From Escherichia coli (GTDB taxonomy: Bacteria > Pseudomonadota > Gammaproteobacteria > Enterobacterales > Enterobacteriaceae), in the NCBI RefSeq assembly GCF_003790525.1, contig NZ_CP033635.1: a stretch of DNA of 64,000 bases; one strand, given 5' to 3'. Below, one piece after another: positions 54,577 to 56,380 of the stretch (position 1 is its first letter; every line of letters starts with the position of its first letter). The notes beneath the pieces are model-generated. The model was not told where the DNA came from, ran no database searches, and saw nothing but the letters and a program-made list of their open reading frames with translations. The translations under genes were made by a program, and so were the position numbers.

Positions 54577-54983
54577 TCATGTCTGTGACGCTAAAGTAAC
54601 AAAGTATTCACCTTATGTCCATACAGGTTTTGATTGAAATCATGAAACTGTGCACATTTTAACAACTTGACATATATAACGTTTCAAAGTTGTAACTATG
54701 CACAAATGTTAAATTTACCCACCACGGGTTATGATTAACAGAATTGAAACGAAAAAATATTTCTTCTGAACCGATTCACCAAGCAACAAAACGCATAACA
54801 ATTCAATTATGTGAATTAATATGTAAAATGAATGTTCAGGGAAGGAGAGAAAGGTAGTATTTACCTATGTTTTCTTTTTACATTGCTTATTATCACTGCA
54901 ATCGCCACCGTAACCTTCTCGTAGCGAAAATCATCACTTAACCAGAACGTGATGATTTTCAGGTGACAGATTCTGTTTAGAGT

Positions 54984-55280
54984 TCATTCTGAATCTTTGA
55001 ACAAAGACAATCCTTGCGAACGCCGCCATTCTTTGACGATTTTCAGGATGTTTTCAGGTTTACCATCTTCTGGGGAATTAGGATAGAAAATGAGATCTCC
55101 CTTTTTAGGATGTTCAGTAATTTTAATGAAATGATCCACTAAGGTATCGAGATATTTTTCTAATTTTTTCCCTTTTAGGGATTTATCTTTGCTAGTTGCA
55201 TTTACTATCTCCTCAAGCATTTCAAGAAATTCACCTTCTGTGTAAAAATATATTTTGTATTTTAAATCATGCATATACAT
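54984..55280 (-). CDS. Colicin-E9-type DNase immunity protein (Im9-like), copy 3
   Basis: 98 aa; F(Y)TExEFL...HF..ITEHP..GDLIFYP...ENILKIVKEWRRSQGLSLFKDSE; start overlaps the stop of the upstream toxin fragment. Confidence 0.75.
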   Translation of the reverse strand: MYMHDLKYKIYFYTEGEFLEMLEEIVNATSKDKSLKGKKLEKYLDTLVDHFIKITEHPKKGDLIFYPNSPEDGKPENILKIVKEWRRSQGLSLFKDSE

Positions 55281-55327
55281 TATCTCCTGTAGTGAATTTC
55301 ATCATGTAGTCGAGGCGTAACAATCCT

Positions 55328-55516
55328 TTAATTATCAATATCATAAATTTCGCCACCACATTCAATCGCAACACTATGATATATATGGAATTCTTTAACA
55401 ATTTCCTTAGAGCCATAATACCAACCTTCAAGAGGCGCTTTTGCGATTAATCCTTGTTTTATACGTGTTTGGTTACCAGTTGAAAACTGCGCTATCAACT
55501 CCGGATACTGACTCAC
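55328..55516 (-). pseudogene. Orphan HNH DNase toxin tip fragment 2, truncated by a premature TAA
   Basis: GTG-initiated 62-codon ORF (V)SQYPELIAQFSTGNQTRIKQGL...EIYDIDN*; the next frame-continuous codons read RIVTPRLHDEIHYRR*, i.e. the lost end of the HNH motif. Confidence 0.65.
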
Positions 55517-55682
55517 CTCCAGCCAAAGGGTATCGGTGAAAGCGGGAAATTGATAAAATAACCTAATGAGATTTCAGTATTTTACCTGTTTTTTAAGAGC
55601 ACCCACATTATTATTTTATGTTATTAACATCATCGCATTAGCCAGACGCGATGATGTTCCATATATAGTTTTATTATCTACT

Positions 55683-55973
55683 TTATTTAGAGTCTTTAAA
55701 CAAGGGTAGCCCCTGTGAACGCCGCCATTCTTTGACAATTTTCAGGATGTTTTCAGGTTCATCATCTCCCTTCTTTGCAGGATAGTAGATAAGATCGCTC
55801 ATCAACGGATGTTGTGTAATTCTGGTAAGATGTTCTTCTAGATCATCCCAATATTTGTCAAGCTCTTCCCCTTTTAATTGAGCGTTATCCCCGGTTGGAT
55901 TTGTAAACTCGCCAAGCAACTCAATGAATTCCCGCTCTGTGTAATCTTCTATTTTATTTTTAAAATCATACAT
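55683..55973 (-). CDS. Colicin-E9-type DNase immunity protein (Im9-like), copy 2
   Basis: 96 aa MYDFKNKIEDYTEREFIELLGEF...TQHPLMSDLIYYPAKKGDDEPENILKIVKEWRRSQGLPLFKDSK. Confidence 0.75.
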   Translation of the reverse strand: MYDFKNKIEDYTEREFIELLGEFTNPTGDNAQLKGEELDKYWDDLEEHLTRITQHPLMSDLIYYPAKKGDDEPENILKIVKEWRRSQGLPLFKDSK

Positions 55974-56213
55974 TTAACTATCTCCTGTAATAAATTTCAT
56001 CATGCAAATGAGGTGTGCCCTCCTTAAATTATCAATATCGTAAATTCCGCCACTATATTCAATCGCAACACGATGATATATGTGGAATTTTTTAACGATT
56101 TCTTTAGTGCCATAATGCCAACCTTCAAGTGGTGCTTTTGCGATTAATCCTTGTTTTATACGTGTTTGATTACCGCTTGAAAACTGCGCTATCAACTCCG
56201 GATACTGACTCAC
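55974..56213 (-). pseudogene. Orphan HNH DNase toxin tip fragment 1, 3' frameshift
   Basis: 79-codon ORF homologous to the Hcp-ET C-terminus up to DIDNLR, then out of frame (RRAHLICMMKFITGDS); the -1 frame reads ...HLHDEIYYRR*. Confidence 0.65.
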
Positions 56214-56380
56214 CTCCAGCCAAAGGGTATCGGTAAAAGCGGGAAAATGATAAAATAACCTAATGAGGCTTCAGTATTTTTACCTGTTTTTTAAGAGCAA
56301 TCACATTATTATTTTATGTCATTAATATCATCGCATTAGCCAGATGCGATGATGTTCCATATATAGTTTTATTATCTACT

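Follow-up and report, generated by a model that had tools for sequence, protein, structure and literature searches.

A conserved hairpin after the immunity genes of Hcp-ET arrays in Escherichia coli and related bacteria, a candidate stabiliser of immunity mRNA

What is the role of the hairpin that follows each immunity gene in the island between aroP and pdhR of Escherichia coli? The question arose from a window of 64,000 nucleotides of contig NZ_CP033635.1 (the whole stretch analysed, to which all coordinates refer), in which a sequence-only reading had noticed three such structures. The island is the known Hcp-ET locus, in which Hcp is fused to a DNase of the pyocin-S/colicin type; Hcp-ET3-4 with three immunity duplicates has been described in a review (PMC6730261). 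All genes of the array lie on the minus strand. The toxin gene (56668..58449) is annotated in RefSeq with tssD (Hcp), pyocin-S and colicin/pyocin DNase (HNH) domains, and its orthologues carry the Pfam domains PF05638, PF06958 and PF21431. Besides the toxin, the island contains two orphan toxin fragments, both disarmed, and three immunity genes. Of the latter, imm1 (PF01320; 56381..56665) is the cognate DNase immunity gene of the colicin/pyocin type and has its ribosome-binding site within the last 27 nt of the toxin open reading frame (56668..56694, CACGATGAGATTCACTACAGGAGATAA, by sequence alignment). It is followed by a DNase C-terminal fragment with a frameshifted end (55974..56213), the orphan immunity gene imm2 (55683..55973), a second DNase C-terminal fragment with a TAA nonsense codon after DIDN (55328..55516), and imm3 (54984..55274), the last immunity gene of the array, whose C-terminus ..KDSE-TGA is shared by the last array gene of the other aroP-pdhR loci examined from E. 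coli and Salmonella. Alignment also placed a decayed immunity-gene stub, consisting of a ribosome-binding site, an ATG and the first ~15 codons, directly after the imm1 hairpin (approximately 56261..56326), and a matching stub after the imm2 hairpin (approximately 55565..55625). The immunity modules repeat as a tandem unit of ~699 bp that holds all three hairpins. Depending on the strain, arrays contain 1 to 6 immunity genes, and immunity alleles sit at differing array positions in different strains.

The three inverted repeats were found where they had been reported, with gaps of 23, 26 and 27 nt between stop codon and hairpin. By inspection and folding, the array-terminal hairpin after imm3 (54926..54960, minus strand; GAAAAUCAUCAC-11 nt-GUGAUGAUUUUC) has a perfect 12-bp stem, and the internal hairpin after imm1 (56327..56353, minus strand) has 10 bp and a 7-nt loop, its extension being blocked by a sense-strand C.A mismatch just outside the stem. 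The internal hairpin after imm2 had been placed at 55628-55656; that repeat is present as described, but the perfect stem is longer, with 11 bp (55626..55658, minus strand), and on the minus strand it reaches 13 bp including one G.U pair, with a 7-nt loop. The stem base lies 23-24 nt past the immunity stop codon, and the ATCATC core begins exactly 27 nt past it in all three copies. The pattern ATCATCRC-N7-11-GYGATGAT had three matches in the 64-kb window and none in 100 shuffles. Folding of the minus-strand RNA, a check that the sequence-only reading had proposed, gave stable structures at all three sites, from -12.6 to -17.7 kcal/mol (imm3, -16.8 kcal/mol, z -3.7; imm2, -17.7 kcal/mol, z -4.4; imm1, -12.6 kcal/mol, z -2.6), and model R1 scored the imm3, imm2 and imm1 hairpins at 70.7, 69 and 66.2 bits, respectively, the three copies being non-independent paralogues and those of imm1 and imm2 near-identical. 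An Rfam scan at a permissive E-value returned four sub-threshold chance hits, none of them at the hairpins. The hairpins fall into two classes, internal (imm1 and imm2) and array-terminal (imm3), and class tracks array position, not immunity allele; the identical terminal hairpin closes the array in other E. coli, whichever immunity allele comes last.

The hairpin is also present after immunity genes at homologous loci outside E. coli, with compensatory changes: its carriers comprise E. coli, Salmonella enterica and salamae, Superficieibacter and two metagenome arrays. The sequence-only reading had named absence from homologous loci as grounds for rejection, and the comparison gave the opposite result. 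Among 5,426 E. coli genomes, the hairpin spacer was found at 2,595 places in 1,050; the island is likewise carried by 1,050, a correspondence of counts. Salmonella arrays have up to six intact immunity open reading frames separated by spacers of only 69 nt, most of which is taken up by the hairpin and a ribosome-binding site. The arrays at the proP site close with a different hairpin. A metagenome scan with a DNA pattern of the hairpin and its loop recovered four copies of the E. coli type, its other seven matches being chance ones in coding sequence, and the sole match of the spacer in a plasmid search was an 834-kb 'plasmid' that is probably chromosomal. A contig search for distant immunity loci, made with N-terminal peptide patterns from the immunity alignment, yielded five (in Escherichia sp. 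E1V33, Pseudomonas and Affinibrenneria), with the hairpin in none of them. By these searches the hairpin appears to be restricted to one locus family rather than being a dispersed repeat. The literature searched for this locus, for its gene tags and for hairpins within T6SS immunity arrays does not describe it.

In order to see what has been conserved, 23 distinct copies were aligned. Pairing was maintained in 93.9% of cells, compared with 18-61% in slid control alignments, and 5 of the 14 pairs had changed on both sides (A-U/C-G, A-U/G.U/G-C and C-G/U.G/U-A types), although these copies are related by duplication and the independent compensatory events are few, perhaps 5-8. The covariation score was 0.229, compared with 0.129 in shuffles, and was reached by none of 500 shuffles. 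The arms are 82-88% identical, versus ~50% in both flanks, and the 23 nt before the stem contain no indels. It is thus pairing rather than sequence that is kept across genera, and the presence of the hairpin at homologous loci with compensatory changes supports a selected nucleic-acid structure. The loop is variable in sequence (YCUGRYUAA or a 6-nt GUUCUA, with no conserved GGA) and ranges from 6 to 15 nt across copies (7-11 nt in E. coli). Such a variable loop argues for a generic structural role rather than for a loop-binding factor or a DNA operator of fixed spacing. G·U wobble cells that pair only on the sense strand outnumber those that pair only on the antisense strand by 16 to 5, a modest strand signal.

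The sequence-only reading had offered mRNA stabilisation and RNase processing as possible roles, and both are compatible with the conserved structure and the sense-strand wobble bias. We put the probability at about one half that the hairpin is an intercistronic or 3'-UTR stem-loop that would block 3' exonucleases or mark a processing boundary. On this reading, the stem-loop on the immunity mRNA would block 3'-to-5' exonucleases or delimit processing, and a transcript terminated or cleaved beyond it would be shortened as far as the stem, so that a stable immunity message is left. At 23-24 nt from the stop codon, the stem is probably out of reach of the terminating ribosome; a stable fold in untranslated RNA beyond that reach, with covarying pairs, is what marks a protective 3' stem-loop. 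In the internal E. coli spacers, the hairpin has been retained even though the downstream ribosome-binding site is dead, which argues that its role concerns the upstream message. The stem-loop would also have to let enough transcription pass for downstream immunity genes to be expressed, since Salmonella arrays of up to six intact immunity open reading frames with 69-nt spacers need read-through. One point against a role on the mRNA strand is that the imm1 copy folds better as antisense, with -17.5 kcal/mol on the plus strand versus -12.6 kcal/mol. The stabiliser reading is also weakened by the loss of the terminal hairpin to decay in one Salmonella salamae genome and by the different hairpin that closes arrays at the proP site.

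Among the closest known systems is the T1 stem-loop after colicin immunity genes (cea-cei-T1-cel, as in ColE7), which allows partial read-through and for which mRNA protection has been proposed (PMC2896534). We read the T1 structure directly in two ColE plasmids. In both systems, a stem-loop without a strong U-run directly follows an immunity gene of the colicin/pyocin type. However, the T1 stem (GAATGCCAG..) has no sequence homology to the Hcp-ET hairpins, model R1 finds nothing in ColE plasmids, and the immunity genes of colicin plasmids reach 45% identity at most. Furthermore, T1 begins 8 nt past the stop codon rather than 23-27 nt, and it carries a CsrA-bound GGA in its loop and is followed by a lysis gene, whereas the Hcp-ET loops contain no GGA and are free to vary, and the hairpins have a further immunity gene downstream of them, or an orphan toxin fragment, or no gene; there is no lysis gene within the island. 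The Hcp-ET hairpin is analogous, not homologous, to the colicin-operon T1 stem-loop.

A second parallel is provided by Rho-dependent E. coli transcripts, in which protective stem-loops without a U-tail occupy the 3' ends (Dar and Sorek 2018, PMC6061677). The Hcp-ET hairpins resemble these stem-loops in being stable, in lacking a U-rich tail and in following a coding region. E. coli arrays also have, like Rho-dependent ends, a long poorly translated stretch downstream, with 109-113 nt to the orphan open reading frame and ~350 nt from the hairpin to the next immunity start. Unlike such ends, the hairpins are not followed by a rut-like region: no C-rich, G-poor stretch was found downstream (C/G about 0.9-1.0 and C 11-17% over 80-160 nt), so a version of the main reading in which Rho termination precedes trimming is unsupported by composition. 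In Salmonella, the next cistron begins ~20 nt on, which leaves no room for Rho loading. The REP stabilisers in malEFG are intercistronic stem-loops. Others serve in selective RNA processing and stabilisation, for example in the cip-cel operon (PMC10311766). As in cip-cel and malEFG, the stability of individual mRNA segments could be set by hairpins that recur between the cistrons of an operon, but unlike REP/BIME elements the Hcp-ET hairpins belong to one locus family and are not dispersed across the genome.

If the hairpin does stabilise or delimit immunity messages, this would help to explain how adequate immunity protein is made from a long array. It would also cover the orphan immunity genes, which protect against the toxins of other strains, and would connect chromosomal T6SS effector loci with the post-transcriptional logic seen in plasmid colicin operons. 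The hairpin is small, belongs to a single locus family and is of a general kind already known; the value of the finding is incremental rather than conceptual.

Of the alternatives, we first consider a leaky intrinsic terminator or attenuator, which would cause a stepwise drop in expression along the array and whose terminal copy would shield pdhR-aceEF from read-through. The position directly after a cistron matches that of the colicin T1 attenuator, the pdhR start follows 397 nt downstream of the terminal copy, with both on one strand, and the terminal and Salmonella-internal class has an A-tract, a stem of 7-8 bp and then UUUUC(A/G)CU. However, the U-run is at most 4 nt long and is itself paired. 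The earlier observation that no clear U-run follows the hairpins held under a terminator scan, the UUUU of the terminal copy being part of the 3' arm and paired to the upstream AAAA. The stems are A/U-rich, with 2-5 G-C pairs in 10-13 bp, and the loops of the E. coli copies have 7-11 nt. The view that these are not classic terminators was borne out, the hairpin being flagged by terminator scans neither in E. coli nor in Salmonella. The U-run covaries away, being replaced by UGUU in the internal E. coli class as well as in the Superficieibacter and metagenome classes. There, UUUUC has become UGUUC or UGUUA, and a compensatory A-to-C change in the opposite arm (pair 14/46) keeps the pairing. Replacement of the U-run with a compensatory change points to selection on the stem, not on a U-tract, and we regard the attenuator as unlikely, with a probability of the order of one in five.

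The origin of the arms bears on a further alternative, that the hairpin is a functionless junction scar, in which a toxin 3' end was joined to an immunity 3' flank and the product was copied by duplication and gene conversion. The 5' arm is part of the immunity gene 3' flank, while the 3' arm and the 3' part of the loop are what is left of the final codons of the toxin open reading frame. The toxin end at 56668..56694 is homologous to the 3' arm and the sequence beyond it, and this toxin-end segment behind the 3' arm also carries the ribosome-binding site of the next immunity gene. Model R1 gave a weak match at 56672-56783, overlapping the toxin end. Outside the arm, inspection showed no inverted homology, the complement of the immunity 3' flank being unlike the toxin end. 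The clear derivation of the 3' arm and following sequence from the toxin end is what a scar would predict, as are the paralogous nature of the three window copies within the 699-bp tandem unit, the identity of at least 99% over a 62-nt region in 1,005 of the 1,050 E. coli genomes, and the decay of the terminal hairpin in one Salmonella salamae genome. A scar nevertheless leaves unexplained the 12-14 bp of complementarity, the double changes at five pairs, and the arms being far more conserved than both flanks in three genera, and this makes it improbable. We also considered whether the 5' arm might pair at long range with the toxin end upstream and rejected this on inspection, as such pairing offers ~6 bp at most, far below the local stem.

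Could the hairpin instead act as DNA? The sequence-only reading had listed recombination signals at module boundaries among its possibilities, and we considered both a site-specific signal of this kind and an ssDNA hairpin or cruciform that promotes template switching or recombination of cassettes. The variation in array length from 1 to 6 immunity genes and the different positions of alleles between strains would suit such an element, one arm matches the toxin 3' end that recurs before every immunity gene, and single-stranded DNA, too, tolerates a G.T wobble. However, no integrase or recombinase was found in or beside the island, whose neighbours are aroP and pdhR, and hairpin class follows position, not allele. 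The breakpoints also lie elsewhere: the inferred crossovers fall in the invariant ~60 nt at immunity gene 3' ends, and the module junction lies in the dead immunity-gene stub ~60 nt beyond the hairpin. The long conserved direct repeats suffice for ordinary homologous recombination. The module-boundary signal therefore did not stand, and a DNA-level role of any kind is very unlikely. The hairpins do recall integron attC sites, with an imperfect inverted repeat at the 3' end of each array gene that can fold on one strand, but they span only 27-35 nt and have no RYYYAAC / GTTRRRY cores (by inspection, the stem flanks GGAAC / GTTAAT and CTGAAA / TTTTCG do not match), no extrahelical bases and no integrase, and unlike attC cassettes the Hcp-ET units share long direct homology. 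In the cassette-switching form, single-stranded hairpin DNA would stall replication or prime template switching, leading to duplication, loss or exchange of toxin-tip/immunity cassettes; one arm repeats the 3' end of the toxin gene itself, and the other supplies its inverted complement behind every immunity gene. This would give a T6SS effector locus a built-in diversification device, loosely analogous to the elements that promote recombination of Neisseria pilin cassettes, but we give it slightly less credence still. The array, as distinct from the hairpin, resembles orphan toxin-CT/immunity arrays of CDI/Rhs systems, in which a full-length toxin precedes truncated C-terminal fragments that each have their own immunity gene, and in which conserved sequence permits homologous exchange. 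To our knowledge, the definition of CDI/Rhs arrays includes no conserved hairpin after the immunity gene.

The hairpin might also serve the downstream message, either as a 5' stabiliser of transcripts from a promoter overlapping the immunity stop codon or as an insulator of the next ribosome-binding site. Both internal E. coli hairpins have a TTTAAA-16-GATAAT match that ends 15 nt ahead of them, the Salmonella hairpin ends 6 nt ahead of the next gene's ribosome-binding site AGGAG, and unpublished data cited in PMC2896534 suggest that cel mRNA, downstream of the colicin T1 stem-loop, is stabilised by it. Against this, promoter-like matches were not above shuffles (10 found, 13.2 expected), the TTTAAA-16-GATAAT match is not kept in Salmonella, and shuffling of the 5' arm barely shifted the predicted accessibility of the ribosome-binding site (0.35-0.75 versus 0.34-0.62), with no consistent effect. 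The retention of the hairpin where that site is dead speaks against it as well, and the chances of this role are slim. A palindromic operator for a dimeric DNA-binding regulator, for which the conserved inverted repeat ATCATC...GATGAT might be taken, is scarcely credible given a half-site spacing of 6 to 15 bp, half-sites that change in step on both arms and an island with no regulator gene.

Whatever the role of the hairpin, the repeat unit has a constant linker, composed of the immunity 3' end, the hairpin and the toxin-end remnant, apart from its variable cassettes, and this linker is useful for the annotation and typing of Hcp-ET arrays.

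In sequence, the window matches E. coli SMS-3-5 (NC_010498.1) exactly. Between pdhR and aroP it carries an island of ~4.1 kb, whose genes in the window all lie on the minus strand; of 5426 complete E. coli genomes, 1050 have this island. It encodes a 593-aa fusion of Hcp (TssD) to pyocin-S and colicin/pyocin-DNase domains (56668-58449; Pfam families on orthologues), followed by its immunity gene imm1 (56381-56665), a first orphan DNase C-terminal fragment (55974-56213), imm2 (55683-55973), a second orphan DNase fragment (55328-55516), and imm3 (54984-55274). The arrangement corresponds to the UPEC locus type 'Hcp-ET3-4', for which three immunity-gene duplications 3' of the toxin have been described (review PMC6730261). 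All three immunity ORFs are intact, unlike both orphan toxin fragments: the first is disarmed by a 1-nt frameshift ahead of the last HNH histidine (ending in NLRRAHLICMMKFITGDS and a stop, versus NLRIVTPRLHDEIHYRR and a stop), and the second by a TTA-to-TAA change directly after DIDN. A promoter-like TTGAAA-18-GATACT match lies antisense within both fragments (56177-56206 and 55480-55509, plus strand), duplicated along with the tandem unit.

The sequence-only reading had reported a hairpin with an ATCATC/GATGAT core downstream of each immunity gene, and all three inverted repeats were found where it placed them (54926-54960, 55628-55656, and 56327-56353). For the second, the location stood and the stem length did not: the perfect stem is longer than stated, with 11 bp at 55626-55658, and reaches 13 bp on the minus strand, including one G.U pair. 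The ATCATC core starts exactly 27 nt past the stop codon of all three immunity genes, and the pattern ATCATCRC-N7-11-GYGATGAT has three matches in the 64-kb window and none in 100 shuffles. Folding of the minus strand gave -16.8, -17.7, and -12.6 kcal/mol (z-scores, -3.7, -4.4, and -2.6). Because the hairpins sit within a tandem repeat unit of ~699 bp (alignment A1), they are not independent observations; those after imm1 and imm2 are near-identical paralogues, and the one after imm3 represents a second class. A 9-bp hairpin at 46501-46523, ATCATCATCATGACGATGATGAT, has a resembling core and is presumably unrelated, since R1, a covariance model built from an alignment of 23 distinct hairpin copies (A3), gives no match there. 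The longest perfect hairpin of the window is a 15-bp, A/T-rich one, TTAAATTTACTTAATCTTGAATTAAGTAAATTTAA, at 19545-19579.

The hairpin is real and reaches well beyond the window. Its spacer occurs at 2595 places in 1050 E. coli genomes, a genome number equal to that of the island. A plasmid search returned no match in any genuine plasmid, metagenome matches were E. coli-type copies only, and no Rfam family matched; the hairpin does not appear to be a dispersed repeat. Protein relatives of imm1 were then searched and their contigs retrieved, and the hairpin proved to be conserved in Salmonella, Superficieibacter, and metagenome arrays. The arrangement of aroP, Hcp-ET, immunity array, and pdhR is shared by Salmonella enterica and S. 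salamae, and a related island occupies the yjcZ-proP site in Superficieibacter and metagenome Enterobacteriaceae. With ATCATC 27 nt past the stop, the hairpin follows nearly every immunity gene that precedes another module, as well as the last gene of aroP-pdhR arrays. Three contexts were seen. In Salmonella, as in one metagenome array, AGGAG comes 6 nt after the hairpin, ahead of the next immunity start codon, giving spacers of 69 to 75 nt between up to six intact immunity genes in a row; S. salamae locus L023 (3279-5377) has six, with 69-nt spacers and without orphan toxin fragments. At E. coli internal positions, as in Superficieibacter and another metagenome array, the hairpin gives way to a decayed RBS and ATG with a stub of the first ~15 immunity codons, and then to an A/T-rich stretch that leads to an orphan DNase fragment (alignment A4). 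In the third context it ends the array; the terminal copy of L023 is decayed, with GUGGUAGUUUG as its 3' arm. At the second site (loci L024, L025, L029-L031, and L038-L040), the order is yjcZ-proP, Hcp-ET, immunity, and ABC exporter/AprE-like genes, and the hairpin after the last immunity gene is a different one, more terminator-like in appearance, with a CUCUUUUAU tail. Strong R1 matches fall only after immunity genes of the Hcp-ET DNase family, and the colicin plasmids and distant immunity arrays examined gave no match at all. This conserved stem-loop is specific to its locus and lies within the linker that stays constant in Hcp-ET DNase immunity arrays. It has, to our knowledge, not been described earlier, and it belongs to a familiar class of element.

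In line with the sequence-only reading, the hairpins are not classic terminators, failing the terminator criteria in E. coli and in Salmonella alike. In Salmonella, where spacers between up to six intact immunity ORFs consist of hairpin and RBS only, substantial read-through is required. The base of the stem lies 23 to 24 nt past the stop codon, which, judging from ribosome footprints, should be out of reach of the terminating ribosome. We favor, with a probability of roughly one half, a protective or processing stem-loop: it would halt 3'-to-5' exonucleases on the immunity mRNA, and the blocked trimming would leave a stable immunity message. Precedents are the U-less stem-loops at steady-state 3' ends of Rho-dependent E. 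coli transcripts (PMC6061677) and T1, the stem-loop after colicin immunity genes (PMC2896534). T1, whose structure we read directly in two ColE plasmids, is an analogue of the Hcp-ET hairpin, not a homologue. Sequence composition downstream lends no support to a Rho-specific version. A weak attenuator, fitting the terminal and Salmonella class best, is a possible but clearly less probable function.

To assess selection on pairing, the 23 copies were scored over a 14-bp helix. Standard pairs made up 93.9% of cells, while slid controls paired in only 18 to 61%. Both-sided changes occur at five pairs (A-U/C-G; A-U/G.U/G-C; C-G/U.G/U-A; G-C/U-A; and one loop-proximal pair), although independent compensatory events are few because the copies are related by duplication. 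The covariation score was 0.229; shuffles gave 0.129, and none of the 500 reached the observed score. Identity across copies is 82 to 88% in the arms and ~50% in the 23 nt before and 20 nt after; the preceding 23 nt hold no indels. One compensated change carries particular weight: the terminal-class U-run, UUUUC, becomes UGUUC or UGUUA in other classes, and an A-to-C change in the 5' arm compensates; the stem rather than the U-tract is preserved. Wobble pairs lean toward the sense strand (immunity mRNA) by 16 to 5, which is a tendency rather than proof, since the imm1 copy in the window folds better on the antisense strand. The covariation contradicts a functionless junction scar, which we consider unlikely. 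As for origin, every immunity start codon has upstream of it either a genuine ORF 3' end, of a toxin or of an orphan fragment (..CTACAYGAYGARATTCACTACAGGAGATAA), or the 3' loop part and 3' arm of the hairpin (..TAACACGATGATGTTCACTACAGGAGATAA or ..GTGATGATTTTCACTACAGGAGATAA). These two kinds of sequence show clear homology, and R1 weakly matches the toxin's own 3' end; the stem thus pairs an immunity-flank arm with what remains of the toxin's final codons. By inspection, complementarity of the arms does not extend past the stem, and the full-length toxin end has no obvious upstream partner.

SMS-3-5, SSGNw1, and ATCC BAA-2469 share three immunity alleles but differ in their order and copy number (three or four genes per array), and in the E. 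coli arrays examined hairpin class tracks array position. Whatever its allele, the last gene always ends ..KDSE-TGA with a GAAAAUCAUCAC...GUGAUGAUUUUC hairpin, and internal genes end ..KDSK-TAA with a AACAUCAUCGC... hairpin. The hairpin is part of the array's constant linker, not tied to any particular immunity gene. That alleles change position while 3' end and hairpin class stay implies crossovers inside the ~60-nt 3' end of the immunity genes, nearly invariant in DNA (PENILKIVKEWRRSQGLPLFKDS). Decayed RBS, ATG, and approximately the first 15 immunity codons directly follow the internal hairpins (56261-56326 and 55565-55625, minus strand); Superficieibacter has the same stub. It thus seems that the orphan modules of E. 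coli were joined into a tandem array of immunity genes that was already there, within an immunity gene's 5' end, which puts the junction ~60 nt past the hairpin. The earlier suggestion of a recombination signal at module boundaries was accordingly not borne out, and a DNA-level recombination or slippage element is improbable: there is no recombinase, and breakpoints lie elsewhere.

The hairpin persists where the RBS downstream of it is dead, and removing the 5' arm in silico left predicted RBS accessibility unchanged; it therefore more likely serves the upstream message than the downstream gene, and a downstream-acting 5' stabiliser or insulator is quite improbable. Least probable is an operator. 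The GGA motif of CsrA is absent from the hairpin loops, and the loop, 6 to 15 nt long and unconserved in sequence, argues against both a loop-binding factor such as CsrA and a DNA operator of fixed spacing.
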